DNA of 64,000 nt, taken from the IMG/VR virus record IMGVR_UViG_3300033075_001165. One strand, given 5' to 3'. This stretch comes from an uncultured virus (IMG/VR IMGVR_UViG_3300033075_001165). Lineage: Duplodnaviria > Heunggongvirae > Uroviricota > Caudoviricetes. The position numbers and the translations under genes were made by a program. The notes beneath the pieces were generated by a model. That model saw only the letters and a list, made by a program, of their open reading frames with translations, searched no databases and was not told the DNA's origin. This document shows positions 2,858 to 62,723 of the stretch, one piece after another; position 1 is the first letter of the stretch, and every line of letters begins with the position of its first letter.

Positions 2858-3211
2858 TTAATCTAAAAGGGCTAATAAATGCGGGTCGTTTTCAATCGCT
2901 GGTAATTTGTCCGCGTCTTTAATATAAAATTGTTCAATAAAAAAATCATTTTGTTTTCCTTGTAAGAACATCATAAAGTGAAAACGGCTTAATACTTGGC
3001 GGAGCTCTAAAACATCGTTTAAATAGCCTAAAAATTCCGGTTCACCTTGTTGTGGCTTTCCCATATACCAGAATTTGTTTAGCCATATTTTAGGCTCAGT
3101 TTGTCCGCTTAGGTCGTCGTTAATTATTTCAATTTTTAACGGCATTTTTTGGCTCATTGCCAGCGCTTTTAGTTTTTGTATTGCGGTTTTCATAGTTTTA
3201 ATTTTTAACAT
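2858..3211 (-). CDS. hypothetical protein
   Basis: ORF track; early-type cluster. Confidence 0.55.
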   Translation of the reverse strand: MLKIKTMKTAIQKLKALAMSQKMPLKIEIINDDLSGQTEPKIWLNKFWYMGKPQQGEPEFLGYLNDVLELRQVLSRFHFMMFLQGKQNDFFIEQFYIKDADKLPAIENDPHLLALLD

Positions 3212-6182: not shown

Positions 6183-6392
6183 ATGAAAAAAATAAGGTAT
6201 TGGGTTGTTAGGTTATTTTTAAGTTATGAGGAGATGTTGTTGTTGGGGGAGGCTGTTGATAGGAGGATTGAGGGGTTGGAGAGATATAGGGTTTTGGAGA
6301 AGACGGCGGATAAAGATTTTATTGATATGGATTTAAGGGTATTGTGGGGGTTGAAGACTGGTATTTGTTTATTTGAGGGTAAAAAGAGATAG
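6183..6392 (+). CDS. hypothetical protein
   Basis: ORF track; first gene of the plus-strand arm. Confidence 0.5.
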   Translation: MKKIRYWVVRLFLSYEEMLLLGEAVDRRIEGLERYRVLEKTADKDFIDMDLRVLWGLKTGICLFEGKKR

Positions 6393-20997: not shown

Positions 20998-21528
20998 ATG
21001 GACAACACTAAACAATTAGAAGAAATACAACGCACACTAAGAGCTGGAATAAATTCTGGAGGATTTACAACATTGGTTAAATTAACTGGAGCGCAAATTG
21101 GGGTTTCTGGTGCGGCCTATGCTACTGGAGATGTGTTGGGTGATACAAGCCCAATCGCTGTTGAAGTGGTTCGTGGCAAAAATGGAACTGGAATTTTACA
21201 ATCATTAATTATTCAAGATTTAAGCAAACAAAGTATTGCTCTTGATATGGTGGTTTTTGATTCTAATCCAACAGCTACAACGTTTACAGATAATTCAGCT
21301 TTAGATATTGCGGATGTGGATTTGCCAAGAGTAATTGGTGTTGTAAAGATAGAGTCTACTGACTATGCTGCATTTAATGACAGCTCAGTTGCAACAAAAA
21401 CAGGAGCAGGATTAGTGTTACAAAATTATTCAGATTTAAATAAAGTATGGGTTTGCTTTGTAACAAGAGGCGCTCCTACTTATGTAGCAGATGAATTATC
21501 AGCAGTAATTGGAATTTTACAAGACTAA
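20998..21528 (+). CDS. putative structural protein
   Basis: beta-rich; ATG at 20998 preferred because the ORF-track start overlaps a terminator. Confidence 0.6.
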   Translation: MDNTKQLEEIQRTLRAGINSGGFTTLVKLTGAQIGVSGAAYATGDVLGDTSPIAVEVVRGKNGTGILQSLIIQDLSKQSIALDMVVFDSNPTATTFTDNSALDIADVDLPRVIGVVKIESTDYAAFNDSSVATKTGAGLVLQNYSDLNKVWVCFVTRGAPTYVADELSAVIGILQD

Positions 21529-23117
21529 TGCCTAACATAAATATAAATAGAAGGATTATTCTACCTTCAAGGACTACGCTAACGCCGCCTCCCGTATCAG
21601 GCGCTAAGGTTTGGCTTCGTGCTAATGGACTTGTAACAGGGGCTACAACATCTTATGGCACTGTTGATGGTTCAGGAGAGGTGACTCAATGGACTGATTT
21701 AACAGGTAACGGAAACCACGCTACTTATGTAGGTGGTACTGGCACATCTCCTAACTTAACAGGAACTGTTGGAACTAATACAAAAAATGGTATAACCTTT
21801 GACGGAGTATTAGATAATTTACAGATTACTAATTTAGCATTATGTAAAAACGTATCAGGGATTACAATTTTTGTTATTTTTAAAACAATAGCCGCTGTTG
21901 GTGGTGTTACCGAGAATGAATTAGTTTTTATTGGAACAGATAACGCTTCAAGAGGGCGTTTGTCAATTACGTATGATTCTACTTCTGGCAGATATAGAAC
22001 TCGTTCAAGACGCGTTGATGCGGATGACACTTCTCATCAATTATTAGGAAATGTAGTTAACACAAATAGTAATGTATTATGTTCTTCAATAAATTTTTCA
22101 ACAGGATATGGTTTCTTTACAGAGAATGGTTCTGTTATAAATTGGGACACTGATACAAACTCAACTACTGGAAATTGCGGGAATACTAACTCGGCTCAAA
22201 TCTCTATTGGTAATTTAATACACGCAACAAACTATCCATCTAATGCAGTTATAGCGGAAGTATTAATTTATGATACACCCTTAACCGTTTCGCAAGTTGC
22301 TTCTGTTAACGAATATTATCAATCTTATTATGGAATAGCGTCAGCTTCAAACTACGCAACACAAGCTGAGACTACGACTTATTTAAACAGATTAACAGCA
22401 TTAGGATATACTGCTCCAAGTTCAACTTGGATAACTCACTTTAATAACTTAATAGCTAAACAGGTTGCTAATGCTAATGGATTCTCTAAAGTAGATAGAT
22501 GGGGATTGTTTGAAACTGAAACCGAGAACCCTGCATTAGTAGATATTAAAGATACAACCAAGTCTTTAACATTAACTTCAACAACTTGGGACACTAAAGG
22601 GTTTATCGGAAACGGTACAACTTCATTTATTAATACAAACTTAAACCTTTCAACAGGAACAACTAACTATACTCAAAACTCTGCAATGCTTTTAGCTTAT
22701 GGTAGAAAGACTGCGGTTCATGCAGGGGTTATAATGGGGGCTAAGGCTGCAAGTGATTTGGCTAAACTTTATCCAAGATTTACAGACGGTAAGATTTACG
22801 GAGGGGTTAACAACGCAACAGGAACAACAGCAAGCGCTACAAACTTCTCAGCCTTTAATATAACAGGAACAAGACGAGCTTTATCTACTACTGAGGCTGT
22901 ATTCTGGGGTAATGAATTAGAAACGGCTGCCGCAAGGAATAGTACTGGTAGACCCGCTGTAAATTTATATTTATTAGCTCATAATAATAATGGTACGGCT
23001 GCTGAGTTCTATGCAGGACAAATATCGACTTATATAGTAGCCGCAGCTACGTTTGATAGGGATGCGTTTTTAGTGGACTATAAAACATTTGAAGCCGCTA
23101 TTGGAATAACATCTTAG
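21528..23117 (+). CDS. LamG/concanavalin-like virion protein
   Basis: 'VWLRA...QWTDLTGNGNHA...GITFDG...IAEVLIYD' lectin-like signature. Confidence 0.7.
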   Translation: MPNININRRIILPSRTTLTPPPVSGAKVWLRANGLVTGATTSYGTVDGSGEVTQWTDLTGNGNHATYVGGTGTSPNLTGTVGTNTKNGITFDGVLDNLQITNLALCKNVSGITIFVIFKTIAAVGGVTENELVFIGTDNASRGRLSITYDSTSGRYRTRSRRVDADDTSHQLLGNVVNTNSNVLCSSINFSTGYGFFTENGSVINWDTDTNSTTGNCGNTNSAQISIGNLIHATNYPSNAVIAEVLIYDTPLTVSQVASVNEYYQSYYGIASASNYATQAETTTYLNRLTALGYTAPSSTWITHFNNLIAKQVANANGFSKVDRWGLFETETENPALVDIKDTTKSLTLTSTTWDTKGFIGNGTTSFINTNLNLSTGTTNYTQNSAMLLAYGRKTAVHAGVIMGAKAASDLAKLYPRFTDGKIYGGVNNATGTTASATNFSAFNITGTRRALSTTEAVFWGNELETAAARNSTGRPAVNLYLLAHNNNGTAAEFYAGQISTYIVAAATFDRDAFLVDYKTFEAAIGITS

Positions 23118-23118
23118 T

Positions 23119-23475
23119 ATGGCAGACGCTCCTTTCAATAACACAAATATTAAGCCCTCTGATATTACCTTATTAGATATTGTTAAGGCTATAAAGAACG
23201 GAACTGAGTATGAAACTCGGATGACGAATCTTAATGATTTCTTTGGGGAGAATCTTTCTTTAACTTTTGAGCAAATTTACGGAGACCCTTATCTTAGTGC
23301 AACACTTGGGCCAGTCTTAGAAGAAATTGATAAAATCTTAAAGGCGCATACAAAAGAATTATTATATTTGAATAGATTACTGGCTTTACTTTTGTTTGAG
23401 TTAATTGAACAAGGAATAGAGATAGAATCAAAAGAATTATTAGAAGAATTAAAAATATATTTAGCAAAAAAATAA
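23119..23475 (+). CDS. hypothetical structural-region protein
   Basis: ORF track; tight packing. Confidence 0.6.
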   Translation: MADAPFNNTNIKPSDITLLDIVKAIKNGTEYETRMTNLNDFFGENLSLTFEQIYGDPYLSATLGPVLEEIDKILKAHTKELLYLNRLLALLLFELIEQGIEIESKELLEELKIYLAKK

Positions 23476-23476
23476 C

Positions 23477-23824
23477 ATGGAGAATCAAGGTTTAAATCCA
23501 GATAATCAGCTAGTAACAATTAACACTGATTGGAACAACAATACATTAACTACTCAATACGGTTCAAAATATCAATATTTAGTAGAGCAAGGAAAAGTTT
23601 ATTATGCAGCTTCACAAACTGCAACAACTTGGTCAGTAGCTTTAAACGCAGCTTTACAAGCGTTGTATCCAACTAAGTATATTGATATTTATAGTGATTT
23701 TAATGGCGGTAGTGGTTTGTTGAAATATGAATTATCATCAGGAGATGGAACACACTTGTCAGCACAAGGTCAAACTCAGGCAGCAAGTAGTTTATTAACA
23801 GCCTCTCCATCAAGTTTCTTGTAA
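23477..23824 (+). CDS. hypothetical protein ending in an SGNH-hydrolase-like C-terminal fragment
   Basis: 'YIDIY...GDGTHLSAQGQ' (DxxH block) without a GDS block. Confidence 0.5.
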   Translation: MENQGLNPDNQLVTINTDWNNNTLTTQYGSKYQYLVEQGKVYYAASQTATTWSVALNAALQALYPTKYIDIYSDFNGGSGLLKYELSSGDGTHLSAQGQTQAASSLLTASPSSFL

Positions 23825-23828
23825 GAAT

Positions 23829-24056
23829 ATGGCAGATTATGTTCCAGTTGGAAATCCCAACGCGCCTAATACTGTTTCTTTAGCAGATTTAGTGCAAACA
23901 TATAATACTGAAACAGGAAAGCAATTTCCTACAAGGTGGCAAAATATTGCTGACCTAATAGCTCCTTTAGTAACAACGGAATGGGGAAACATTCCACAAA
24001 CTCCAACAATAGATAATCAAAAAGATTTATTAGCTTTGGTTAGCCTTAGAATATGA
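23829..24056 (+). CDS. hypothetical protein
   Basis: ORF track; N-terminus loosely similar to 23119..23475. Confidence 0.5.
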   Translation: MADYVPVGNPNAPNTVSLADLVQTYNTETGKQFPTRWQNIADLIAPLVTTEWGNIPQTPTIDNQKDLLALVSLRI

Positions 24057-26563
24057 TTTTATTAAAAACAACAGACATATTAAGGTTTCGTTTAAGCGGG
24101 GCTGTAACAACAAATCAATTAGATTTTGTTACATCGTTTGTTGATATAACTGGATTTTCTCCAAGTAATAATTCAGGAACAAGTAATGACGCAACTAATG
24201 TTACAATTATAGGTTCACCTTCTGCTGGAGTAAGACAAGTTAAATTTATATCTATTGTGAATGTAGACACTACTGGCGCTACGGTTACAGTAGAGCAATA
24301 TGATGGTGTTAACGCGAGGCAATTACTAACATGGACGTTAGATGTTTATGATACGCTGTCTTATGTAGACAGTGAAGGATGGAAAGTTTTAGATGCTTTT
24401 GGTAAAACAAAAGTTACAACAGGCGTTGGAAGTGCTGGAAATATAGTTTTTAGTGCGGGTACACAATCAGCTGTTTTAGATACAGTTATTTTTAGTAATA
24501 GTAATAGGGTAAGTTTTGGATTAGCTGGTTCAACAATTACCGCTAAACACGCATTAAATTTTTCTGCTGGTACTACAAGTAATAATGTTAGTGACGGATT
24601 GGTGTTTTCAAATTCAAACGGAGTTTCATTTGGATTGAACGGAAGTACAATTACGGCAAGTGTTTTGGCTGGCGGCGGGGGATATTTATCTGCTGGTACG
24701 CAAACTGGTTCGTTAGGCACAGTGTCTTTTAAAAATACTAACAATGTTAGTTTTGGAATGGATGCTCAAACAATAACAGCATCAGTTGCAACAAGTTTGT
24801 CAAATATAAATGTATCAGCTGGCACTACATCAAATAATTTATCGGCATTTGTTTTATCTAATTCAAATAATGTAACATTTGGACTTAATGGTTCAACTAT
24901 TACAGCAAGTGTTACAGTAGGTTCTACACAAGGTTCTATCAATGTTAGCGGAGGTACAACAAGTGGAAATTTAAGTGCTATTACTTTTTCAAACTCTAAT
25001 GGCGTTAGTTTTGGTTTAAACGCTGGGACTATGACAGCTTCGGTTAACGCTTTAAGTAATATTAATATTAGCGCTGGAACTACATCAAATAATTTAACAG
25101 CCTTAACTTTTAATAATTCAAACGGGATTACATTTGGGCTTAATGCTTCGACAATTACAGCAAGCCATAATGGGCTTACTACCGCAATGGCAAGTGACGC
25201 GGGTAGTAATTTTGTTAATACATCGGCTGGATTAAATCTTACAAACATTTCCGCAACTTTTAATTCAAATAGCATTAGTTTAGCTGTGGCTGACCCAGTT
25301 AATACAGCTGGATTAATTAGTGCTATTAATGTTTCTGCTGGAACTACTTCAAATAATTTATCGGCGGTTGTTTATAGTAATAGTAATAATGCAACATTTG
25401 GTTTAAATGGTAGCACAGTAACTATTAGCTCTCCTATAAGTTTAAGCGCTGGAACGACTAATGGAAATTTTACAAATGTTGTTTTTTCAAATTCTAATAA
25501 TGTAAGTTTTGGCTTAAACGATTCAACGATTACAGCAAGCATAAGTCAAACCAATCAAAATATTAGCTTCTTTGCTTTAGGGAATACAACTCAGAATTCA
25601 TCAACCGTATTGAACGCTTCGCAAATATCATTCAATGGACTTGGTGAGCTTAGTGTTGGTTTTAGTAATGGTTCTATTAACTTGAGTGCTAATGTAGATG
25701 CCATAACAGCTTATGGAGTATCAAATACAACTCAAGGAACAAGCGGAACGTTAAGCATAAATTCTTTATCTTTTAATGGCGCTGGGGGTATTAGTGTAGG
25801 AATATCTAATGGTAGTATTGTTATCTCTTCTCCAGTGCTATCTACTTATGAGCCATATCCAGCATTAGGATTAAGTACTGTTAACGTTGGTATTGCTACT
25901 AATACAAGTGCAGGTATTTCTGTATTCCCTTTTTATGTAGATGAGTTTGTTAGTGCTGGAGTATTAAACATTCCTTTTTCAATGAACTTTTTAACAGTTG
26001 GAACGTCATCTGGTCAACAAACTATAGGACTGGCTTTAGGGTTATATTCAAGAAATGTTAGCACTCTTAATTCAATAGTGTCTACATCGTTTTCTATAGG
26101 TGTAACTGGAAATAACTCATCTTATACCATAAATCAACCAACAACAACGGCATATACTGGGTATAATGGAACTGGAGCAACAAATAGCGCTGGTTCAAAC
26201 ATAACTTCAGGATATACTGGACAAAAATTAATTCAATTTCCTATAAATACTTTATTAACAGTTGGAGATTATTGGCTGGCAATGATTGGTACTAAATCTA
26301 CATCTTCTGTTAACGTAGGTTTGTCTATGTCGTATATGGGGGCGGCTATGCCAGCTGGATTAAGCGCCCTTGCTCCAATAGGCTCATTTAGTAGTGGTTT
26401 TACAACTGGTTTTAATCCTATTGGCGGTAGATGGAATATAATGCAAGGGTTGTGGACAAGTGCTGGTAGCGTAACAATGATTCCCGCATCTATGGCTCAT
26501 AACTCTATTTCTGCTACAAATAACATGAACACTTACCCCTTAATGAAATTTTGGTCAACATAA
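24053..26563 (+). CDS. repeat-rich tail fibre / receptor-binding protein
   Basis: multiple ~38-43 aa repeats SAGTTSNNLS..FSNSNxVSFGLNGSTITAS; Ser/Thr/Asn/Gly-rich. Confidence 0.75.
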   Translation: MILLKTTDILRFRLSGAVTTNQLDFVTSFVDITGFSPSNNSGTSNDATNVTIIGSPSAGVRQVKFISIVNVDTTGATVTVEQYDGVNARQLLTWTLDVYDTLSYVDSEGWKVLDAFGKTKVTTGVGSAGNIVFSAGTQSAVLDTVIFSNSNRVSFGLAGSTITAKHALNFSAGTTSNNVSDGLVFSNSNGVSFGLNGSTITASVLAGGGGYLSAGTQTGSLGTVSFKNTNNVSFGMDAQTITASVATSLSNINVSAGTTSNNLSAFVLSNSNNVTFGLNGSTITASVTVGSTQGSINVSGGTTSGNLSAITFSNSNGVSFGLNAGTMTASVNALSNINISAGTTSNNLTALTFNNSNGITFGLNASTITASHNGLTTAMASDAGSNFVNTSAGLNLTNISATFNSNSISLAVADPVNTAGLISAINVSAGTTSNNLSAVVYSNSNNATFGLNGSTVTISSPISLSAGTTNGNFTNVVFSNSNNVSFGLNDSTITASISQTNQNISFFALGNTTQNSSTVLNASQISFNGLGELSVGFSNGSINLSANVDAITAYGVSNTTQGTSGTLSINSLSFNGAGGISVGISNGSIVISSPVLSTYEPYPALGLSTVNVGIATNTSAGISVFPFYVDEFVSAGVLNIPFSMNFLTVGTSSGQQTIGLALGLYSRNVSTLNSIVSTSFSIGVTGNNSSYTINQPTTTAYTGYNGTGATNSAGSNITSGYTGQKLIQFPINTLLTVGDYWLAMIGTKSTSSVNVGLSMSYMGAAMPAGLSALAPIGSFSSGFTTGFNPIGGRWNIMQGLWTSAGSVTMIPASMAHNSISATNNMNTYPLMKFWST

Positions 26564-29844: not shown

Positions 29845-30238
29845 TTTAACAATTTTAATTTTGGTTATTTAAATTTATAACCTATATTTGTAGCATGAAA
29901 TTTTTACGAAGGGGCTATTTACACATAATGTTAATTATCGGATGTTTACGAAGGATAATTTCACGTTATGTTAATATAGCTTTGGAGTGTCGACCGTTAG
30001 GAGACACAAGGCAGAAGGGTAAAAATTTCATCGGGGCGATGTCTCTGCGATTTTGTAAAAATCGACTAAGTACGGGTCAGGAAATTGTTAGTTTAAATAA
30101 TGAGGATTTAAGCCAATCTTGTCTTTTAGTTGGCGAATATAAAAATCAAGAAGATGTTTTTGTTAAAGCTTCAGATGCTTTATTACCTTATCAAGGTTCG
30201 TACCAACTGCATAAAAATCCATAACGCCGATTGAACAT

Positions 30239-37769: not shown

Positions 37770-38384
37770 ATGTATTTAGACATTCCAAGAAATCCAAAAA
37801 GTAACGGATTAATATTCTTAATCTGTTTAGCAATTTTTATGCTGATGTGTGCTGTTGCTTGCGAGGGACAGGTTTACAAGGCAACCGACATTCCAATGAT
37901 AATGAATCGGACTGACTCTATATCGAGGCTTGAGTTATTAACAGCTAAGAAGTTTCATAAAAAACTTAATGAGTATCGAAAACAGAAAGGTGTTTGTGAG
38001 CTTAGATGGAGCGATACGCTTTATATATTAGCTATGAATCATAATGCTTGGATGAGTTATAATAAAACTCTTTTAAGCCATGAAGAATTTAATTTTAATA
38101 CTCAAAATTTTACTGGAGAAACAACAAGAGATAGATTGGATTATGTTTGTGAGACAAAAACAGTTGGAACTTATGAAAATTGTGCTTGGTTCGGAGCTTT
38201 TGATAAAACTATTGAGCAGATGTCTGAAGACGGGGCTTTAACAGCATTTAATATGCTGAAAGATGACAAGCCACATTGTGCGGTAATGATTAATCCTAAT
38301 AATAAAGTTCACGGTGCTCATTTTTCTTATAAAGGCAGATATTGTACAAGTGAATTTTACGGAATGAGGCTTGTTAAAAATTAG
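37770..38384 (+). CDS. secreted CAP/SCP-domain protein
   Basis: signal peptide; LNEYRKQKG..L.WSD.L...A.NH..WM, LSH, ENCA, PHCAVMINP. Confidence 0.75.
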   Translation: MYLDIPRNPKSNGLIFLICLAIFMLMCAVACEGQVYKATDIPMIMNRTDSISRLELLTAKKFHKKLNEYRKQKGVCELRWSDTLYILAMNHNAWMSYNKTLLSHEEFNFNTQNFTGETTRDRLDYVCETKTVGTYENCAWFGAFDKTIEQMSEDGALTAFNMLKDDKPHCAVMINPNNKVHGAHFSYKGRYCTSEFYGMRLVKN

Positions 38385-38434
38385 TATTTAATCTTATTAT
38401 ATTTATTGCTATATTTAAGCCAAAATCATAAGCA

Positions 38435-41400
38435 ATGAAAGCTCCTAAAATAGGTTATCAAGACGGCGGTAAAACTAAAAAACAATTAGATTATTCTAAA
38501 AGTAAAAAGGTTGAAAAAACACCTGAACAACTTATAAGTGAGGGGTATAAAGAAGAAAAAAAAGACGGCAAAACGTATTACGTAAAGCAAGGTCAATCTG
38601 ATACTCCAAAATCAGAAACTCCAAGAAGGGTTTATCCAGCTCCGCCCAAAAAATCATCTACGGTTGGAAGCGGAAAGCCCCAGTTGCCAAGAAGAACACC
38701 TCCAACAACATTGCCTCCAACAGAGAAAGATTTTCAAGATATAGTTTATATTGAAGATAAAGTGCCCCCATTAGTTGGTGTTAATACAGATATTGAAGCT
38801 AAAGGCGAAGAAAAAAGAACGGCTTTAGGAACAAATGCTTATATGATTTCATATCCTGATACAAAAGGTGGAGGGGGGATGTCTAAAGCTACTGAGGTTA
38901 TATTTAATAATGACCCGACTATTGGAAAAATTGGCGACCAAATCATATACGACCCAGTAACTGGTAAACCAACATTTACTGGTAAATCTCAAAAAGATTT
39001 TACTTCTCAAAATATGGGGTCAATTAGATTGATAAGTAACGATGTAAATAAAAATTCAGTAGATTATCAATTAAGTAATAGCAAAAATCCAGTGGCAAAT
39101 ATTGGAGATAAGATGCAAGAAACAACAGCACAAGGATTAAATGCACCAGTTATTGATAAAACAGAACAAGGAATTAATACAGGGTTATTAGATATTAATA
39201 CTTTGCCAACAACAGAACTTAAAAAAAGAAACGCGGAGATTCCCGTAACGTCTCCTAAATTTAAGTCAGGTGGCAAAATAATGAAGGCTCCTAAAGGAAT
39301 TAAAGTTAAAGGCTATTTACTTGGCGGAGAAGTTGAACAAGAGAGAGAAGAAGGTTATAGCAGGGCAAATCCTGAACAAGATAGAGCAACGGCTCAATTA
39401 GACGCAAATGGAAATCCTATTTTGTCAAACAATACATTACCACTAAGTACTGGTACAGAATTTAAAACACAAGGCGATGCTCCTTTATCAACAACGCCTA
39501 CAACAGCATTAGACGATAAAAGTCAGCCAAAACAAAAAACAGGTAGTGGATTTGGAAGTAAATTAGGTTCATCGTTAGGATGGATGCAATATGCTAATAT
39601 GGCTAAAGAAGGAGCTTTAGCAACAGTAAAAAAAGACACAATTACAGACCCTACAACTGGTAAAGACGCTACGGGATATAAAGATTTTAAAGGTCAAGCC
39701 ACACAAGTTTGGGCTACACCAACTCATGAAAAAATAATTGACGAAGCTAAGAAAGGTAATTACGGTAAGGCGCTTTTATCATCCGACCCTCTTTTAGGAA
39801 ATGCTTATGCTTATTCGCAATTAAGAAAGGGTAATGAAAAATATAATCAAGCTTTAGAAAACATTGAAACGCAAAAAAAGAATGAAGGCGCTCAAACGGC
39901 TTTAGGAAATGCTTTAGCAGCACGAGAAAACGGCGAAACTGGATATAGTGCCGTTAATCCATATAGACGTGATGCAAGTATTGATGAGAAGAAAGTTAAG
40001 ACAAAAGAAAATGCTTTAACTCGATTTGGTGACGCTTTAAATTTTGCCAAAGGCGGTAAAATTGTTGGCGCTGGCACTCCTAAATCTGATAGCATTAACG
40101 CTAAGATTGAAGACGGTAGTTTTGTTGTGCCAGCCGAAAATGCAAAAGAGGCTGAAATCATAAGGAAGGTAGTTCTTAAAAAAGCACCAAGTGTAAAAGC
40201 TAAATTAAATCAAAAAGGTGGTGAGAATGTAAAGCTTAGTAATGGTGAACATTTGTTTACACCTAATGAAGTTAGTAAAATTGAAGCTTCTGGAATAGAC
40301 TTAGATAGATTAGCGCCAGATGCAGATAACGGAAATAGTTTTGCTGGTGGTGGAAAAACTGGAAATGATAGTGATTATCCTAAAGAATTAGATAACAAGT
40401 TTGACTCTTTAAGACAAAAAACAGAAGAAGATTTACGCAAAGCTTTTCCTGATAAAGAAATTAAAGTTGTTTATAAAGGAAAAGAAAGAAGTTTAGCTGA
40501 CCAAAAGAAGCAATTTGATAAAGGCTCATCTACTACTAAATTTGGATTACATGGTATTGGAGCGGCGAGAGATTTTAATATTATAATTAATGGTAGAGTT
40601 TTGGGAAATAACAAAGAAGACCATAAAATATACCAAGATTACTTATGGAAAAATGCTGAAAAAAGCGGGTTATATCATTTGAAAAAGGATGAATTTGGAG
40701 GAACTGACCCTTATCATATTGGATTGGTGGAAGAAAAAGGTGACGGGACGGCTTTTAAAAAATTAGTAGAAATGTATCCTGAAATTACCAAAACAAAACA
40801 GTTTCAGAACTCGTTAAAAGAATTACGGGATATTAAGGCAAAAAATCCTAATGATACTACTTATGATTCTTTTTTAAATAGTGTAAAAGATGTTAAGCCA
40901 GAAGTTAAAAAAGAAGATTCTTATACAGATGATTTATCTACTATATTTAAAAACAATAAGCTAAATACAAAAACGGAAGATAAATTTAGTACAGACTCTG
41001 AAAAACAAAAAATAGAATCCGAAAAATTATCCAGAGAAAAAGCTATTTCAGAGAAAAAAGCATCTGATAAAAAACTACATGAAGCTGCTCAAAATGAATC
41101 TAATTGGAATCCAGACGGTACAGCTAAATTAAATTCAAATAAAGGTGATGTTATTAACGGAATTAATAATACAGCAGTAGCTTCTTTAAAAGCACCAAAA
41201 GGAATTAAAATAACAAATACGCCAACACCAGAAACACAGTCACAGACTGAAGCGACAGTGAAACAGGGAGAAAATACAACTAATGTAAATGACAATGAAT
41301 CTAATTATGTTAATACTTGGGATAGAGCCTTAATTAATAAGGCTAATGCACCAACAGCTACAACAGAAAAAGCACAAACTGTTAACGACCCTAACTTAGA

Positions 41401-42043
41401 TAAATATAATAAAGATTTAAAAGAAGCTGAAAACAGAACTCCGCAAGGTGGTGGCGATAAAGGTAAAAGCTGGAAAGCTTGGTCGCCGATGTTTGGAAAT
41501 TATTTAGGAAATGCTATTGAAACAGGAGCTTCATTAGCTCAAATAAAATTAGGGCGTGATGCTTTAAATAAAGCTGGAGCAAGACCCGTTGGAGAGATTG
41601 ACCCTTCGTTTCAAGCTAATGTAGACCGTGCTCATGCTCAAAGTAAATATGGTTTTACGGCAGAGCAAAACGCTTTAATTAATCAAGAGAATCAAAATGC
41701 TACAAACGCAGCAAGATTCGCGGCGCGCAATTATTCTGGCGGTAGTGGTGGTAATGCTTTCAACATGGAGCGCAGTGCTATTAATGAAGGTTGGGGTAGA
41801 GGATTACAAGCTAAAATAGCTAATACAAATTTAATGCTTGATAAACAACAATTAGACAATCAATTATCTTTACAAAAAGCAGAAATGAGTAGACAATTGT
41901 TTGAAGATAAAATGGATGCGTTTCAACAAAATCAACAAGCTGGAGCTTTACTTAAACAGACTGGCTGGAAAAATTTAATTGGAGCTACAAGATATGCAAG
42001 TGCTTTAAATAGTATTAATCAACAAAATCAATTAGGACAATAA
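38435..42043 (+). CDS. internal virion / ejection protein with M15-like peptidase domain
   Basis: 1202 aa, low complexity, repeated (Y/F)xxGG(K/E) motifs; RSLADQ...GLHGIGAARD...DPYHI. Confidence 0.65.
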   Translation: MKAPKIGYQDGGKTKKQLDYSKSKKVEKTPEQLISEGYKEEKKDGKTYYVKQGQSDTPKSETPRRVYPAPPKKSSTVGSGKPQLPRRTPPTTLPPTEKDFQDIVYIEDKVPPLVGVNTDIEAKGEEKRTALGTNAYMISYPDTKGGGGMSKATEVIFNNDPTIGKIGDQIIYDPVTGKPTFTGKSQKDFTSQNMGSIRLISNDVNKNSVDYQLSNSKNPVANIGDKMQETTAQGLNAPVIDKTEQGINTGLLDINTLPTTELKKRNAEIPVTSPKFKSGGKIMKAPKGIKVKGYLLGGEVEQEREEGYSRANPEQDRATAQLDANGNPILSNNTLPLSTGTEFKTQGDAPLSTTPTTALDDKSQPKQKTGSGFGSKLGSSLGWMQYANMAKEGALATVKKDTITDPTTGKDATGYKDFKGQATQVWATPTHEKIIDEAKKGNYGKALLSSDPLLGNAYAYSQLRKGNEKYNQALENIETQKKNEGAQTALGNALAARENGETGYSAVNPYRRDASIDEKKVKTKENALTRFGDALNFAKGGKIVGAGTPKSDSINAKIEDGSFVVPAENAKEAEIIRKVVLKKAPSVKAKLNQKGGENVKLSNGEHLFTPNEVSKIEASGIDLDRLAPDADNGNSFAGGGKTGNDSDYPKELDNKFDSLRQKTEEDLRKAFPDKEIKVVYKGKERSLADQKKQFDKGSSTTKFGLHGIGAARDFNIIINGRVLGNNKEDHKIYQDYLWKNAEKSGLYHLKKDEFGGTDPYHIGLVEEKGDGTAFKKLVEMYPEITKTKQFQNSLKELRDIKAKNPNDTTYDSFLNSVKDVKPEVKKEDSYTDDLSTIFKNNKLNTKTEDKFSTDSEKQKIESEKLSREKAISEKKASDKKLHEAAQNESNWNPDGTAKLNSNKGDVINGINNTAVASLKAPKGIKITNTPTPETQSQTEATVKQGENTTNVNDNESNYVNTWDRALINKANAPTATTEKAQTVNDPNLDKYNKDLKEAENRTPQGGGDKGKSWKAWSPMFGNYLGNAIETGASLAQIKLGRDALNKAGARPVGEIDPSFQANVDRAHAQSKYGFTAEQNALINQENQNATNAARFAARNYSGGSGGNAFNMERSAINEGWGRGLQAKIANTNLMLDKQQLDNQLSLQKAEMSRQLFEDKMDAFQQNQQAGALLKQTGWKNLIGATRYASALNSINQQNQLGQ

Positions 42044-56685: not shown

Positions 56686-57141
56686 TTATTTTTTAATAAT
56701 TGTTTTATAATATCGTGAATGATACTGCTCAGGGTCGGGGGTTGAAATATCATTTTCATCACACCAAAATCTTACTTTTTCTATAAACTCTGAGTATTCT
56801 TTTTTACTTAAATCGGCGCTACTTCTTACTTTATGCCTAATGTAGCTTTTGTCGGGCGTTACAACTTGTTCGGTGTAGCTTAGAAACAAATCAGCGAAAA
56901 ATTCATGTATCTTATCATTGTTTTCAAAGTGAGCAAAATATTCAGAGTTTTTGCAAGCTGAATATATTGCCCCCCTTAGATACCCATGCATGTCGATTGA
57001 AGGTTTTTTATGCTGTTCTTCAATTATCTCCACAAAATTCTTTCCTTCAAGTTCTTGCAATTGTTGTTTATAAAGAAAGGGATTATCATACAGCTTTTTG
57101 CCGTTGACTACCCTTCCTCTATGTTTAATTACAAGTTTCAC
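56686..57141 (-). CDS. NinB-like recombination protein
   Basis: 'SSADLSKKEYSEFIEKVRFWC...I.TPDP' C-terminal pattern. Confidence 0.65.
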   Translation of the reverse strand: MKLVIKHRGRVVNGKKLYDNPFLYKQQLQELEGKNFVEIIEEQHKKPSIDMHGYLRGAIYSACKNSEYFAHFENNDKIHEFFADLFLSYTEQVVTPDKSYIRHKVRSSADLSKKEYSEFIEKVRFWCDENDISTPDPEQYHSRYYKTIIKK

Positions 57142-57144
57142 AGA

Positions 57145-57915
57145 CTAAAACGGAAGGCCACTTTCTTCATTAGTATCAACACTATCTACACCTTGTATAA
57201 TAGCATTTTTTATGGCGGGGTCAGCGAGATTAGATTTACTGCTATTAACCGTTTCTGTGGCTACTGGCGCATTATTTGTAACGGCTGGTGTTTCGGTAGG
57301 GGCGGTGGCGTTACGTTCAAAATAAGCCTTTAAATACTCCTGTAATGTTTTGTCTAATTCAATAGCTTCAAGATTAGTTTCTTCTTTAATCTTTACAGCT
57401 TCAAACTTAGGCTCAAAATATTTTGTAGCTCCTTTTTTAGCGGGAGTGGCTGATTTAACCGTAACAGCACACTCCATAATTTTATTAGCTTTACAGAATT
57501 CAATCCAACTTGATAAAGCAGAACCGCGCATTTGAATGTTGGCTAATCCTAAATTTTTGCCATCCATTTTAATTCCAATATACACCGATTGACAGTATTC
57601 AACTCCGTCTGCCGCCATTTTAGCCTTAATTTGTTCCCAAGTTCCAGTCATTTCAAGTCCTTTCTTAGAACGAACTGTTATAAGGTCTTTACGAATATCT
57701 TTTACTTCATTACTCCAATAACCGCCTTGATTGGCATCATTAAACCCTTTTACAGTAGCGCAAGTATCAAGTACTAAAAATGTGAAGGGTAAAGGAACAT
57801 CAACGTTTTGTTTTAATTCCTTATCATAATATTTAAAATTTCCGTTACTTCCTGACCATTCGTAAAAACGTGCTGCTGGATTAACTAATTGTTCATTTGG
57901 ATTACTTCTACTCAT
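57145..57915 (-). CDS. putative single-stranded DNA-binding protein
   Basis: beta-rich core, flexible linker, acidic tail ending LPF; TATCTTTG at 57959-57966 (minus). Confidence 0.6.
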   Translation of the reverse strand: MSRSNPNEQLVNPAARFYEWSGSNGNFKYYDKELKQNVDVPLPFTFLVLDTCATVKGFNDANQGGYWSNEVKDIRKDLITVRSKKGLEMTGTWEQIKAKMAADGVEYCQSVYIGIKMDGKNLGLANIQMRGSALSSWIEFCKANKIMECAVTVKSATPAKKGATKYFEPKFEAVKIKEETNLEAIELDKTLQEYLKAYFERNATAPTETPAVTNNAPVATETVNSSKSNLADPAIKNAIIQGVDSVDTNEESGLPF

Positions 57916-58004
57916 TTTATTTGTTTTTTAGATTATTAATTTATCGGTTTATATTTTACAAAGATACTAAAGGTTATTATATTTTACAACTTTATTTTAA
58001 GATA

Positions 58005-58286
58005 TTAACTAAGTAATTCTAAATCAGTGTAATTAGTTTTAGTGTTTCGTTTTTTATGGTATTTACGTTGATATTTTTTGCGGGATTTTGTTAATCCTTT
58101 CTTCTTATTTCCATGTGTTTTTATAACTCCAAAAAAGGGTACGTCCAATCTAAATACCTGACCTCTTTTTAACACTCTGTTTATAGGAGAAACATAAGAC
58201 TGTATTATCATACGAATGGCTTTTTCTTCAAATCTTGGATTCATCCGCGATAATTTTCTGTAAATATTATCCTTCTTAACTAGCAA
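58005..58286 (-). CDS. HU/IHF-like basic protein
   Basis: 'RVLKRGQVFRLDVPFFGVI'; overlaps the integrase stop. Confidence 0.5.
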   Translation of the reverse strand: MLVKKDNIYRKLSRMNPRFEEKAIRMIIQSYVSPINRVLKRGQVFRLDVPFFGVIKTHGNKKKGLTKSRKKYQRKYHKKRNTKTNYTDLELLS

Positions 58287-59172
58287 TAGATAGTGTTTTT
58301 GTTTGATTTAAAGAATTATTTAATAACAAAGCGTCTACCTTATCAAAGTTGTTTTGCATTCCTTGTATGGTTAATCTGCAATAATAATCGCGGGTAGTTT
58401 GAATATCGGCGTGTCCTAAAAATTCACTTACGTACATATCAGAAGCGCCGTTATCAAGTAGGTGGGTGGCACGGGATGAGCGTAATATATGTGGATAAAC
58501 TCTTTTATCTATTCCGCAAAGCTTGGCAGTGTTTTTAATAATATTTTCCACTGATTTAGCGGAATATTGCAATCTACCACCATCACCGTTAAATACATAA
58601 ACGTGGGGGACAAAATCGGCTAAGTATTGGATAAGTAGTTCTTTTGTTTGTTCAGGGATTGTAATCACTCTGCTTTTACCATATTTGCTTCCTATTATTG
58701 TTATTCTTCTATCGTGGGATAAATGCTCTATTTTAAGATTAAGTAGTTCTCCGCGCCTTAAAGCGCCATAATAAAGCAAATTAATAATCGCCAGATGTTT
58801 TAAATAAATAGGGGCATTACACATAGCCATACATTCTTGATAACTTAAAATGTTAGGAGTTTTAAGGGGATTGTCGTGATATTCTAAGTTTTTACATTGA
58901 GTGTATTTGCCATTAATTTTATAAAGACGTTTTATAGATGCTATGAATGAATTTATATAAGCTGGAGAATATTCTTGTTCTTTTAAATAAACAATATAAT
59001 CTTCAAGTTTTTCTTGGTTGCACAGTAGCACTGAAATAGAGTCAAATTTACCCCATTCCATAAACATTCCTATGTTGTTACAATAAGTTTTAGCAGTTTT
59101 GAAATTTCCACCAACTGCCAAAATCTTTCGACTAAATTTTTTTAAAAATTCTTTATTTTCTTCTTGTAACAT
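58276..59172 (-). CDS. tyrosine recombinase (integron-like integrase lacking the IntI-specific insertion)
   Basis: LRRGE (R), SKYGKSR (K), HILR, LGH and terminal Tyr (TTRDYY); SAM-like N-terminus. Confidence 0.92.
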   Translation of the reverse strand: MLQEENKEFLKKFSRKILAVGGNFKTAKTYCNNIGMFMEWGKFDSISVLLCNQEKLEDYIVYLKEQEYSPAYINSFIASIKRLYKINGKYTQCKNLEYHDNPLKTPNILSYQECMAMCNAPIYLKHLAIINLLYYGALRRGELLNLKIEHLSHDRRITIIGSKYGKSRVITIPEQTKELLIQYLADFVPHVYVFNGDGGRLQYSAKSVENIIKNTAKLCGIDKRVYPHILRSSRATHLLDNGASDMYVSEFLGHADIQTTRDYYCRLTIQGMQNNFDKVDALLLNNSLNQTKTLSIAS

Positions 59173-59224
59173 ATTGATTGTTAATTTGTTTTTATATAGA
59201 ATGCGTTAATAAGAGAGTTATGTT
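59173..59224 (+). other. attI-like primary recombination site (crossover G|TT at 59217)
   Basis: GTTATGTT at 59217-59224, 45 nt from the integrase start; no hairpin on its left; complementary to AACATAAC at 59669-59676. Confidence 0.6.
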
Positions 59225-59743
59225 CAATTTTATTTTATTAATTTTTAAAAGCCTACGCACCTATGTTCGTGTATAGTCAATCCCTCTATCATCATAATCC
59301 CAATCACTATCAATAGTAAATTTATCAATCATTTCTGTTTGGTATTCTATTGATTTTTTCAGCCCCTCAATTTGCGTTTTAAGTCCTTTTACTTTCAACT
59401 CTCTTTGCTCTTTAATGTATTGTTTTGCTTCATCTAAACTTTTGAAATATTTATCTGAAACCATACTTAAACAAATTCGCCAATTGTATTCAGTTCCTCT
59501 GCTTCTCAACGCTCTAACAAATGCGTATCTGTCTGTCAGGTTTACGCAATCACGTTCCCATATTCTAACTAAATCATCTTTTACTACATACACTTTGAAA
59601 AATTCCATTTCCTTCGCTTTTTTAAAAATTAATAAAATAAAACTGCCACACACACTTGCCTACGCACCAACATAACACAACCTAAAATCAAACCGCCATC
59701 ACCAAACCGCTTATAAAGGCGGTCAGCTTTTAGCTTGATGCCG
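59218..59743. mobile_element. gene cassette 1 (ORF plus attC-like site)
   Basis: GTTATGTT...AACATAAC ends; extra 25/26-bp terminal inverted repeat. Confidence 0.7.
59261..59608 (-). CDS. cassette-borne hypothetical protein
   Basis: ATG at 59608 (MEFFKVY...) lies just inside the inverted repeat; 115 aa with C-terminal coiled coil. Confidence 0.65.
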   Translation of the reverse strand: MEFFKVYVVKDDLVRIWERDCVNLTDRYAFVRALRSRGTEYNWRICLSMVSDKYFKSLDEAKQYIKEQRELKVKGLKTQIEGLKKSIEYQTEMIDKFTIDSDWDYDDRGIDYTRT

Positions 59744-59749
59744 TTAGCG
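59670..59749 (+). repeat. attC-like site 1
   Basis: ACATAAC-aCAAcCTAAAA..ACCGCC / GGCGGT..TTTTAGcTTG-atgcc-GTTAGCG imperfect hairpin. Confidence 0.7.
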
Positions 59750-60595
59750 GTAATGCTAAAAACCGCATCGCTGACAAGCAATCTCATAATATTTAGGTTC
59801 TTTTTCAATCCCGATAAATTTACGGTTAAGTTCTTTTGCAGCCAAGCAAGTAGTTCCGCTTCCCATAGTGTTATCCATCACATTCATTCCTTCGTTAGTA
59901 AATGTACTAATCAACCACTTTAATAAACCTATTGGCTTTTCTGTTCTATGCTTTGCAATACTTGGATGTATTTTTTCAAAAGTCAATATACTTTTAGGGT
60001 GTTTCATATCACCAAGTATTTCTTTATTATCCACAAAATCAAACGCACCATAGTTATTATTGGCAGTTTGTTTTGGCTTCCCTTTACTGTGGTTTGGTTT
60101 TCCTTTTACTTTTTGTGGGTTGTAAATCGGCTGTTTTCTATAAAATACCATTATATCCTCGTGGCTTCGTAAAGGCATCCTGTTTGCGTTTAAAAATCCA
60201 CTTGTAAGCACTTTGTCCCAAATCAAATTGTATTTATGGTTTTTATCACTAAGCATCATTAATGCAGTAAACTTGTCCTGCCCAAATAAAACAATCGGAG
60301 CGTTTGGTTTTACAATTCGCCAATACTGTTCCCATAAATTTTCAGGGTCAATCATTATATCATCTTTATTTTGCGTTACCTCATAAGGCAAATCGCAAAG
60401 CACCATATCAATACTATTATCAGGTATCAAAGGCATAATATCCAAGCAATCGCCTTGAAATAAAGCACTACCGCTAACATCGGCTATATGCAATAGCGGG
60501 GTCGGTGCGTTCTTCAACATTTGTTCTACTATCATCATTCGTTCTATATTTTAAGTTTTGTGTTTCAAATCCGCTACTGCACATAGCCGTAGTCG
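59744..60595. mobile_element. gene cassette 2 (DNA methyltransferase plus attC-like site)
   Basis: GTTAGCGGTAATGCT (59743-59757) matches the reverse complement of AGCACTACCGCTAAC (60464-60478) at 14/15. Confidence 0.75.
59756..60538 (-). CDS. N6-adenine/N4-cytosine DNA methyltransferase (beta class)
   Basis: DLPY catalytic motif N-terminal; HRTEKP and DNTMGSGTT SAM-binding motif C-terminal. Confidence 0.92.
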   Translation of the reverse strand: MMIVEQMLKNAPTPLLHIADVSGSALFQGDCLDIMPLIPDNSIDMVLCDLPYEVTQNKDDIMIDPENLWEQYWRIVKPNAPIVLFGQDKFTALMMLSDKNHKYNLIWDKVLTSGFLNANRMPLRSHEDIMVFYRKQPIYNPQKVKGKPNHSKGKPKQTANNNYGAFDFVDNKEILGDMKHPKSILTFEKIHPSIAKHRTEKPIGLLKWLISTFTNEGMNVMDNTMGSGTTCLAAKELNRKFIGIEKEPKYYEIACQRCGF

Positions 60596-60601
60596 TTATA
60601 C
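60472..60601 (+). repeat. attC-like site 2
   Basis: CGCTAAC-at-CGGCTATATGCAATAGCGG ... CCGCTACTGCACATAGCCG-tagtc-GTTATAC; 17/19 stem. Confidence 0.8.
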
Positions 60602-60615
60602 ATCATTTTATACTA

Positions 60616-60637
60616 CAAAGATAATAAAAGGTTACAA
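60616..60637 (-). promoter_or_regulatory. promoter firing into the cassette array (TTGTAACCTTTT box plus TATCTTTG)
   Basis: minus strand reads TTGTAACCTTTT-AT-TATCTTTG, the same architecture as 6137-6159. Confidence 0.6.
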
Positions 60638-60687
60638 TATTTAATAACTTTATTTGTTAAATGTTTAAAACTTGGTTCATCCGCCGA

Positions 60688-62055
60688 TTAAAACGTTTCA
60701 TTACTACCACTTGAAATACCCTCTGGAACGTAATCAGAGTACTTAGAATAGCGTCCGTCAAATCGGGCATATACAGGTCTGGGTGTAACATATCTGCTCT
60801 TACCAAGCCCTATTTCAACTACACCCTTTAAACTATTGCCGTTTTCATCCACTGGATTCTTATCATAATATTCTGGGCGGTATAACAACAACACTAATAT
60901 ACCAACAGCCTCGATGCCTCCTGAGCCTTTTAAATCGCTCATGCGAGGGCGAGGGGGCACACGTCTTTCAACATCGCGGGATAACTGAGATAATAGCACC
61001 ATGCAAATATTGTATTTCTTAGCGATATTATTTAATTGTTGACAACGCAAGTCTAATATCTGTTCATCTGATTTATTTTTTATTTCGTCAGGGGTATTGT
61101 TCATTAACTGCAAGTAATCTATAAAGCAAAGGATAGGGATAGTCATCGGCGTTTTTTTTCGCATCTTTCTAAATTTATTCTCCACATATTGCCAAGTTAT
61201 ACCCGCGGTATCATCTATCAACAGATTGTCTTTAAATCGATTTCTTATTCCTTTAATGACGTTTATATCATCTTCGCCAGCGTTCCCGCTTCTAAGTGTA
61301 AAAGAATTGATTTCTGTGGCGTTTGATATGATGTTAGTCATAATCTCAATAGCTGGCATTTCAAGGCTAAAGAAAATAGTTGGCACTCTATCTTCAATAG
61401 CATTCTTTTTTAAGATGGTAACAAGAAACGCGGTTTTGCCCATTGCAGGGCGACCAGCGATTATATTAACCCCCTGCATTATGCCGCCAGTTTTTTCATC
61501 AAGTTCTTTTACTCCAAATGAATATCCAACTAAGGCTTTTTTATTTTCTTTAAGGTCAATTATCCTTTGTAAGGCTTCTTCAAAATATTCATCAATCTGT
61601 TTATCTTTAGATACATTATTTATTACCCCTTCAATATCTGTAATCTTGTTTTTAACCTTATCCAACACTTCTTGAACTTCACCATGTTCTGAACTAAAAT
61701 CCGTATGAGCTTCATAGAGTACGGGTAACATTTTTCGGCGGACAAGATTATCAAATAGTATTTTCACCTTTGGCTCAGACTTAAGTGACGTGTTCATGTC
61801 AAATACAGCTTTGGAGCATAAATCTATTGATGTGTTTTTAGGATAACCAAGTTTTGTAAGTTCGTTTAAAAGAATAGAGAAATCGGTGGTAATGCTTTTT
61901 TGATGATTAAGCTTTATTATTTTATAAACCTGTTGTTTTATTTTAGAGGTAAAAATATGTTCTGAAACAAGGTGTTCGCAAGTTTCAAATAGGTCGGGCT
62001 TAGAACAGTATGTTCCAAGAATTTTATTTTCTATGTCATCAAGGTTACTGGTCAT
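60688..62055 (-). CDS. dnaB: replicative DNA helicase
   Basis: AGRPAMGKT, FSLEM, IDYLQL, LSQLSR, SDLKGSGGIE. Confidence 0.95.
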   Translation of the reverse strand: MTSNLDDIENKILGTYCSKPDLFETCEHLVSEHIFTSKIKQQVYKIIKLNHQKSITTDFSILLNELTKLGYPKNTSIDLCSKAVFDMNTSLKSEPKVKILFDNLVRRKMLPVLYEAHTDFSSEHGEVQEVLDKVKNKITDIEGVINNVSKDKQIDEYFEEALQRIIDLKENKKALVGYSFGVKELDEKTGGIMQGVNIIAGRPAMGKTAFLVTILKKNAIEDRVPTIFFSLEMPAIEIMTNIISNATEINSFTLRSGNAGEDDINVIKGIRNRFKDNLLIDDTAGITWQYVENKFRKMRKKTPMTIPILCFIDYLQLMNNTPDEIKNKSDEQILDLRCQQLNNIAKKYNICMVLLSQLSRDVERRVPPRPRMSDLKGSGGIEAVGILVLLLYRPEYYDKNPVDENGNSLKGVVEIGLGKSRYVTPRPVYARFDGRYSKYSDYVPEGISSGSNETF

Positions 62056-62600
62056 GATTTAAAATTTAAATAAGCAAATTCGCCAAAAAGTTCTTTGGCT
62101 TTTTTATCATAAGCTAAAGCTGCGTCTAATTCGTTTTTAAAACATCCTATGTGTATTTTTTTATTTTGAAATCCAATTGATGCAGTCCAAGAATAATATT
62201 CTTTTTTTATTCCGTGTTTAAGAGTGTGTTTTGTTTTTTTTAATGTAACTCCTTTGTAAATGGAGAATAGGTTTTTGTTAAACCCTCTATTAATATTGTT
62301 TTGAGAATGAGTTGCTATTCTTAAATTTATTTTCTGATTATTAACTCCGTTTCTATCGGCATGGTCTACAAATGTTTTTGGGTCTGTTAAATTCATTATA
62401 AACCTATGCATTTGCACCATTTGTCGTTTTCCAGTTAAATTATTTTTTATTCCCGCAGTAGCGTAAAAACAACTATCTCCCTTGATGGCATTCCAATTAT
62501 ACATATTTACTTTAAAAAAATCTTCGTCATCAACTTGAGCAAATTTTGGAGCGTCCTTGTGCTTGTTTTCTTTAAATTTGTTTAATTTTATTAATTTCAT
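62052..62600 (-). mobile_element. HNH-AP2 homing endonuclease-like protein
   Basis: MHRFI...VDHADRNGVNN...NLR..T.SQN plus AP2 domain YKGV...W.A.I...HIG.F..E.DAALAYD; ATG at 62600 preferred. Confidence 0.85.
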
Positions 62601-62723
62601 ATTTAAAATGTTCCCTACTCCACTAAAGGCTACACCGCTACCCTTATGGGTATTGGACAATAATGTTTCGGGAATATTTTTAATGTTTTTCATAGAACGA
62701 TGTAGCGGCACAAAGATGCTAAA

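Follow-up and report, generated by a model that had tools for sequence, protein, structure and literature searches.

A candidate integron-type gene-capture platform with an Xer-like recombinase in a tailed phage genome

Introduction

Can a phage carry an integron-type platform for gene capture whose recombinase is not an integron integrase? The question is raised by a stretch of 64,000 nucleotides from an uncultured virus (IMG/VR record IMGVR_UViG_3300033075_001165; the whole stretch is hereafter ‘the window’), in which a tyrosine recombinase gene is followed by two single-gene units, each ending in an imperfect AAC...GTT hairpin. What defines an integron, both for the field and for its standard software, is an integrase whose special domain recognises the bulged bases of attC sites; a sequence-only reading of the window had nonetheless proposed that the two units are cassettes, shuffled by an enzyme other than IntI. 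Having followed up that proposal, we put at roughly 60% the probability that a compact platform for integron-type gene capture is present here, in the genome of a tailed phage.

Related clusters have been described before; in this respect the sequence-only reading, which knew of no description, was mistaken. The available text of Qi et al. 2023 (PMC9892861) reports integrase-less attC clusters in 17 phages, with methyltransferase cargo, and finds that IntI1 recombined five of the six phage attC sites tested; the single site without a verified IntI1 product is P12002L_attC1, which these authors called with HattCI. That site corresponds to positions 30008–30057 of our locus L190, where it lies between two methylase genes and shares both its build and its gtagcc-GTTAG end with the window site. 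We also considered the IntI1-active site of P12002L as the family member, and ruled this out, the supplement of Qi et al. identifying attC1. Where the available text of the IntegronFinder paper (PMC4889954) deals with recombinases lacking the IntI domain near attC sites, it judges them not to be IntI. Among open-licence papers and preprints we found none describing an Xer-like enzyme that runs such arrays in phages or Flavobacteriaceae, which is not proof of absence.

Results

Two units with paired ends

Read along the plus strand, the region consists of a left-pointing recombinase gene, a 44-nt attI-like region reaching to the G/TT at 59217 (the slash marking the crossover) and then two cassettes; every gene of the cassette region is carried by the minus strand. 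Its principal features are as follows (ORF, open reading frame; aa, amino acids; nt, nucleotides).

58276..59172, minus strand: Xer/XerA-like tyrosine recombinase, 298 aa (PF00589, 5e-27)
59173..59216, minus strand: attI-like region lying between the start codon of the recombinase and the terminal crossover site
59217..59224, plus strand: terminal simple site GTTATGTT, the G/TT junction of the array with the recombinase side
59217..59742, minus strand: cassette 1, with ORF130
59670..59745, plus strand: attC-like site 1 (AAC 59675–59677 ... GTT 59743–59745), a hairpin with an internal loop
59743..60594, minus strand: cassette 2, with an N6/N4 DNA methyltransferase gene at 59756–60538 (PF01555, 1e-27)
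60476..60597, plus strand: attC-like site 2 (AAC, 2–3 nt, 19-bp stem, 71-nt loop, stem, 5–6 nt, GTT)

The ends of each cassette are complementary: GTTATGTT (59217–59224) pairs with AACATAAC (59670–59677) at 8/8 positions in cassette 1, and GTTAGCGGTAATGCT (59743–59757) with AGCACTACCGCTAAC (60464–60478) at 14/15 in cassette 2, the latter arm lying within the methylase reading frame (codons VSGSA), with the left arm of the hairpin also coding. The flanks of both hairpins, in their current arrangement, match at TAAC/GTTA only. All these motifs are present where the sequence-only reading had placed them, and the hairpin that it drew at 60472–60601 is indeed there; the closing GTT of this second unit is, however, corrected here to 60595–60597.

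The arms of site 2 (60481–60499 and 60571–60589) pair at 17 of 19 positions, forming an ungapped 19-bp stem with just two A.C mismatches and without extrahelical inner-stem bases. The start codon of the methylase—an enzyme that probably blocks host restriction enzymes—is located in the 71-nt loop. For ORF130 of cassette 1, the true start is at 59608 (MEFF), giving 115 aa to the stop at 59261; it is supported by a 116-aa homologue that sits within the array of a 462-kb phage record. Adjoining the 8-mers of this cassette is a 26-nt inverted repeat (25/26; 59225–59250 and 59620–59645) for which none is expected (100 shuffles), and a direct 11-mer occurs at 59251 and 59658. Locus L163 contains a twin of the cassette: GTTATGTT/AACATAAC again form its ends, a different gene is enclosed by a 25/26 repeat that covaries, and the left neighbour is a hairpin site. 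An inverton, considered for the 26-nt repeat, was dropped on seeing this same design around another gene within an array; no strand-changing joint was reported.

Site 1 folds with a z of -3.6 on the minus strand, and its homologue in L163 scores 11.5 with our AAC-stem-loop-stem-GTT scanner—a tool that permits no bulges, so that bulged members of the family would escape it. Run over the 64-kb window, the scanner returns four sites scoring at least 9, against 1–5 in five shuffles, and only that at 60476–60597 (score 16) is exceptional. The case from the window alone is weak; it is the comparison with other loci that decides.

Cassette boundaries across phage loci

An exact 18-mer from the left arm of site 2 is found in 49 IMG/VR contigs, across which the ~120-nt AAC-to-GTT element is near-identical (the right arm being present in 45/49). 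Homology then ends right after the GTT: the 43 loci with GTT plus flank show 39 distinct 15-mer flanks, at a median pairwise identity of 0.40. On the other side, the left neighbour of the hairpin is the methylase in 45 of 48 loci, the remaining three diverging right at the AAC; the same hairpin and ~20-codon leader open a Mom-family gene in L143 and a different methylase in L145, and in L151 the hairpin precedes a 337-nt unit. Homology to the methylase cassette of the window starts at 59741–59744 in 30 loci, with unrelated sequence left of the opening GTT from locus to locus, and many of them having another hairpin of the same build at this place. A terminal-inverted-repeat transposon was dropped as an explanation because homology continues through the hairpin on one side only.

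The pairing of cassette ends is likewise a property of the family. The 15 nt before the AAC pair with the 15 nt that start at the GTT, at the far end of the gene, and do so with covariation in five cassette types: two methylase alleles differ in the coding arm by synonymous substitutions, for which the 3' arm has the matching changes, whilst L143, L145 and L151 each have pairing sequences of their own. When bases after the GTT are compared with those before the next AAC, for 122 sites scoring at least 12 in 53 loci plus the window, 41 of 70 neighbouring site pairs are complementary at 9/12 or more, against 6.3% of shuffled partners; many of the misses skip a weaker site. Such sites can form long series, with 15 consecutive sites in G048, a complete 73-kb phage record, and at least five chained sites upstream of the recombinase in locus L005.

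Natural variants of the region were sought in Logan contigs of four runs, compared with window positions 57000–62000 at an 85% threshold. The contigs break or change at 59216–59228, 59258–59261, 59606–59609, 59743, 59761, 60462, 60494–60499, 60576–60600 and 60607–60614. The empty site foreseen by the sequence-only reading, without either cassette, appears in a contig of run X5 as the joint 59216->60595, its two sides sharing the five letters GTTAT. Depth at the cassette ends is ~3 to 25 times that of the phage backbone (runs X1, X5 and X7), as would be expected if cassette ends were common to other genomes. Parts of the recombinase region are uncovered in runs X5 and X7, which may reflect divergent alleles below 85% and is no evidence of absence.

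Covariation, breakpoints and the empty-site joint thus agree on paired cassette ends with crossover at G/TT, as in integrons, and the proposal of integron-type cassettes bounded in this way is borne out in many phage loci. From these sequence comparisons we hold the cassettes and their site-specific mobility to be secure with little reservation, all the more because phage attC clusters, including one site of this very family in P12002L, are already published. As for what is carried, a Pfam survey of 58 distinct cassette ORFs identifies 21 N6/N4 methylases, four C5 methylases, two PAPS-reductase-like proteins and one each of Dam-type methylase, Mom, DUF4326 and HTH, with no Pfam family for 27; the cargo being mostly DNA-modification enzymes, the likely advantage is that anti-restriction genes can be exchanged rapidly.

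Some units depart from the common pattern. Short units follow the methylase hairpin in L156 (~3116–3160) and L161 (975–1005), with the opening GTTAGCAAA and closing TTTGCTAAC 12 nt apart; these look like gene-less cassettes, and a very short unit resembling them precedes the recombinase in L007 (122–150). Next to the G016 recombinase (L195, 8287–9061), a probable frameshift has divided the methylase cassette into two overlapping ORFs, of 133 and 141 aa.

Strand preference of the hairpins

Folding of the two window hairpins gives -17.0 and -18.0 kcal/mol on the minus strand versus -12.5 and -14.4 kcal/mol on the plus strand. Stem mismatches in 121 distinct sites, read in a single polarity, comprise 221 of A.C type, 64 of G.T type and 31 others; it follows that the opposite strand forms G.T pairs. 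The related loci (the 122 sites above) share the build of an imperfect AAC/GTT hairpin with an unpaired spacer, of 1–3 nt on one side and 5–6 nt on the other.

Such hairpins might instead serve as signals in RNA or transcription, either as terminators or as 5' stem-loops controlling translation, with homologous recombination between them accounting for the shuffling; just this has been proposed for the promoter-stem-loop cassettes of T4-type phages. It would fit that the phage loop holds the start codon and the first ~20 codons, and that the mismatches are G.U-compatible on the mRNA strand. Bacterial arrays (see below) of the same site polarity, however, put A.C mismatches on the mRNA strand: the G.T-forming strand is the coding strand in the phage but the template strand in bacteria and, as phage and bacterial genes use opposite strands, the mismatch bias goes with the DNA site, not with the transcript. 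Boundaries, moreover, fall at one fixed trinucleotide between unrelated flanks, end pairing has no role in homologous exchange, and a search of Rfam returned no family match for the hairpins. We consider an origin of this kind to be very hard to credit.

The recombinase is not an IntI

In addition to PF00589, the recombinase matches a SAM-like N-domain, and its catalytic tyrosine is Y264 (alignment A1). XerA, XerD and XerC are nearest among NCBIfam models, yet the protein stays under every cut-off (XerA_Arch, 155 against 220 bits; XerD, 118.7 against 329.6; XerC, 106.8 against 335), and with the integron-integrase model TIGR02249 it reaches 80.9 bits, in two stretches, for a cut-off of 265. 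A search of the PDB by sequence finds XerA first and then XerD, the closest solved folds, the sequence of the IntI4 structure aligning only at residues 208–264 (the last 57 aligned residues). The predicted model (pLDDT 88), for which Foldseek ranks XerA at the top followed by VchIntIA, has no extra helix between H174–187 and H205–218, where IntI has its added domain. Going by profile scores, sequence matches and this predicted model, the enzyme is not an IntI, the IntI-specific extra domain near patch III being absent; on this point the sequence-only reading, which had noted a missing insertion, was right.

GenBank phages yield no close relative of the enzyme (best 32%). When IMG/VR was scanned for patterns of the recombinase and of DnaB, no close locus emerged; a profile scan returned L005 plus one weak locus only. 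Metagenome and genome scans found mostly generic Xer genes of 23–36% identity, whose loci we reused as a negative control.

Association of recombinase and array

If the recombinase acts on the cassettes, does its gene keep company with them? In the window and in L005, L007 and G016, whose enzymes are 56%, 59% and 33% identical to that of the window, the last cassette ends in a bare ...YAAC without a hairpin, this terminal AAC lying 37–60 nt (45 in the window) upstream of the recombinase start codon. The motif T-A/C-Y-Y-W-T-W-TTAA-C/A-GCAT follows it in the window, L007 and L005, and in weaker form in G016 (alignment A2). The same cassette end as GTTATGTT abuts, in L163, a hairpin site.

Related enzymes are also present in host chromosomes. 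Of 301 Flavobacteriaceae genomes, 187 are hit by the A1 profile (E <= 1e-40), the ORFs concerned being ~375–420 aa long; 13 of the 30 top loci have a site within 1.5 kb of the gene, and all four extended loci contain arrays, of 2, 4, 11 and 11 sites, starting 450–1200 nt past it. Genes in these bacterial arrays lie upstream of their own attC, whereas those of the phage cassettes do not, being on the other strand and, for site 2, having the start codon inside the site. None of the 301 genomes encodes an integron integrase over the cut-off, the best partial IntI hits being the same Xer-like genes, aligned to the first 180 of 315 profile positions. Divergent from, and upstream of, the ~375-aa recombinase is a conserved cysteine-rich ORF of ~125 aa (CxxC...C...C) in L229 (4493–4873), L231 (4089–4469) and L232 (4514–4888); for L230 no such ORF is listed in the corresponding place.

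The existence of these host enzymes opens another possibility, namely that the two cassettes form a recombinase-less attC cluster (CALIN) moved solely in trans, by a host enzyme in the course of infection, with the phage recombinase doing some other job, such as integration for lysogeny or resolution of genome dimers, and neighbouring the array by coincidence. Hosts do encode the related ~380-aa enzyme beside arrays of their own, phage arrays of up to 15 sites occur without an adjacent small recombinase, and no homologue of the window recombinase is present in 48 of the 49 records that contain the site 2 hairpin; a gene with an unrelated job would, however, hardly be expected to lie 37–60 nt from the array end in 4/4 small-recombinase loci with upstream DNA (three of them with the shared motif), nor would this synteny be expected in two recombinase lineages (56–59% and 33% identity to the window enzyme). 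Amongst the 134 generic Xer-like loci of the negative control (1.14 Mb), two or more sites are seen only in L005 and in one Treponema locus. We therefore treat control in trans as a serious but unlikely alternative. The Treponema locus, L118, was found via an Xer-like gene in a metagenome-assembled genome and has two adjacent AAC...GTT hairpins (141–398; scores 14.5 and 13).

The surroundings of the recombinase gene bear on a further alternative, for which three more features are needed.

57949..58004, minus strand: AT-rich promoter-like repeat with TATCTTTG on the minus strand; direct repeat of 60606–60655
58005..58286, minus strand: small basic ORF, 93 aa, overlapping the recombinase stop
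60606..60655, minus strand: second copy of the promoter-like repeat, immediately upstream of the array, with a further match in IMG/VR record G001

The two copies of the repeat, putative promoters going by a consensus, bracket the whole recombinase-plus-cassette module; the 93-aa ORF matches no Pfam or PHROG family. Insertion sequences and introns are known to target attC sites, and the recombinase with the small ORF (~57932–59216) might similarly be a small mobile element that targets the GTT core instead of shuffling cassettes. Contig joints skip the whole module (57931->60614, a joint of one run X7 contig that has 28 other letters in between) or the recombinase alone (57971->59138) and, together with the bracketing repeat and the many bacterial relatives that sit at contig ends, as multi-copy elements do, they are what such an element would produce. 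Against it, all four of the extended bacterial loci keep the gene in a constant position next to a long array, and three of them have the conserved divergent ORF as its neighbour; nor is there a hairpin or paired end left of the recombinase. We rate this explanation as improbable.

Several observations weigh against our reading of the locus as an integron-type platform and should be set beside it. The 139 inverted pairs present in 2.9 kb make the 8/8 and 14/15 pairs weak when taken alone; site 1 is missed by the scanner within the window; and the empty-site contig is a single one, of depth ~4, whose shorter side spans 30 letters and which has the entry ‘between: not known’. Synteny could be examined at small-recombinase loci with upstream DNA in the window plus three others only. 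A homologue of the window enzyme accompanies site 2 in only one of the 49 records, and any PF00589 match in only three, most of these records being fragments; of the two rated complete, one has no PF00589 match and the other only a 432-aa integrase 1.6 kb past the array, so that arrays evidently persist without a recombinase in cis. Phage cassette genes are on the strand opposite to those of bacterial arrays and have start codons inside hairpins, by virtue of which the hairpins could also act on RNA. Lastly, the joints 57931->60614 and 57971->59138 mean that the recombinase module could itself be a mobile insert.

With these points in the balance, we favour the adjacent Xer-like enzyme as the probable cassette recombinase, in view of the synteny, the lack of IntI in the host family and the one IntI1 failure. 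Of the distinct cassette-shuffling system put forward by the sequence-only reading, then, the cassettes and the non-IntI enzyme stand, whilst the action of that enzyme on them is suggested by synteny only.

The phage and the neighbourhood of the module

Genes for a large terminase, a portal and a major head protein identify the window as part of a tailed phage, whose host group is probably Bacteroidota. Its closest companion, G001, matches window positions 1–49832 and is uninformative on the cassette locus because the match extends no further. Three places within that span have no G001 match (21015–23635, 37880–39269 and 40358–41376), and represent replaced or variable segments in the region of structural genes; elsewhere the two are 95–99% identical. 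An 836-aa ORF (24053–26563) has internal repeats at 24746–25539, with several offset matches to G001 at 67–82% identity.

The gene order about the module is DnaB helicase (60688–62055), methyltransferase, ORF130, recombinase and 93-aa basic ORF. Directly upstream of DnaB, and overlapping its start, is an HNH endonuclease gene (phrog_99; 62052–62711), which may be a homing-type insert. The AT-rich element of ~50 nt with TATCTTTG recurs before gene blocks, with a third copy in G001 (41523–41566) that corresponds to about position 6200 of the window.

Discussion

How might such a platform work? A cassette opens with TT and a further 8–34 nt complementary to the stretch that precedes its own closing AAC. 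It closes with a bulged attC-like hairpin, the final base of which is also the G that starts the next GTT. The minus strand of the window would fold, with nearly all stem mismatches becoming G.T pairs, so as to present two duplex arms around an unpaired spacer of 1–3 nt on one side and 5–6 nt on the other. The recombinase could then exchange one strand at G/TT with the attI-like site or with another hairpin, the product being resolved by replication, as in integrons. The likely catalyst would be the adjacent recombinase or, in the many phages without one, the ~380-aa relative of the Flavobacteriaceae host.

A wider proposal, on which we find the scales about level, is that of a second integron-type lineage without IntI: compact Xer-like recombinases with bulge-free, G.T-biased hairpins, common in the chromosomes of Flavobacteriaceae and taken up by phages, some of which, this one included, would possess the complete platform and exchange anti-restriction DNA-modification genes by means of it. 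A site family in which no bulges are visible travels with recombinases that lack the IntI domain, both in phages and in 187 of 301 Flavobacteriaceae genomes. Should the enzyme be active, the definition of integron-type gene capture would widen, the failure of one published phage attC site with IntI1 would be explained, and phages would gain a direct route for exchanging anti-restriction genes. The window provides a convenient test case, 2.7 kb of it being enough to contain the enzyme, the attI-like site and both cassettes, and an empty form of the locus occurring naturally.

Amongst known systems, the locus most invites comparison with integrons, especially the sedentary chromosomal ones. As there, a recombinase gene abuts a simple G/TT site followed by an array of mostly single-gene units; the units end in imperfect AAC...GTT hairpins that leave a central spacer unpaired and fold better on one strand; the two ends of a unit pair with one another; and one site family is common to many cassettes. 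The differences are equally plain: the phage enzyme is without the IntI-specific domain; stems are ungapped, with no bulged bases seen in site 2; strand bias arises from A.C/G.T mismatches and an uneven spacer; end pairing extends over 15–34 nt versus 7; and the phage genes are on the other strand, starting inside the hairpin.

Xer recombinases acting on folded single-stranded phage DNA are familiar from integration of the CTX-phi type, where host XerC/D join a whole phage to chromosomal dif. Common to both are an Xer-type enzyme, inverted arms some 70–90 nt apart with a central bubble, and one exchange followed by replication; here, in contrast, it would be single genes that move, within phage genomes. 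Acinetobacter plasmid dif modules, too, are discrete accessory-gene modules bounded by sites for Xer-type recombinases, but the sites there are ordinary 28-bp duplexes and not hairpins with paired cassette ends. Treponema has unusual integrons in which, as in the window, the recombinase points in the same direction as the cassette genes; unlike the window enzyme, those of Treponema are counted as IntI.

Closest of all are the phage CALINs, which, as described in the available text of Qi et al. 2023 (PMC9892861), are attC-type clusters with methyltransferase cargo in virulent phages, without a recombinase reported beside them, and are read there as classical integron parts. The window, with its two sites and no IntI, resembles a CALIN in turn, and P12002L_attC1 is a short-loop member of the window's own site family.

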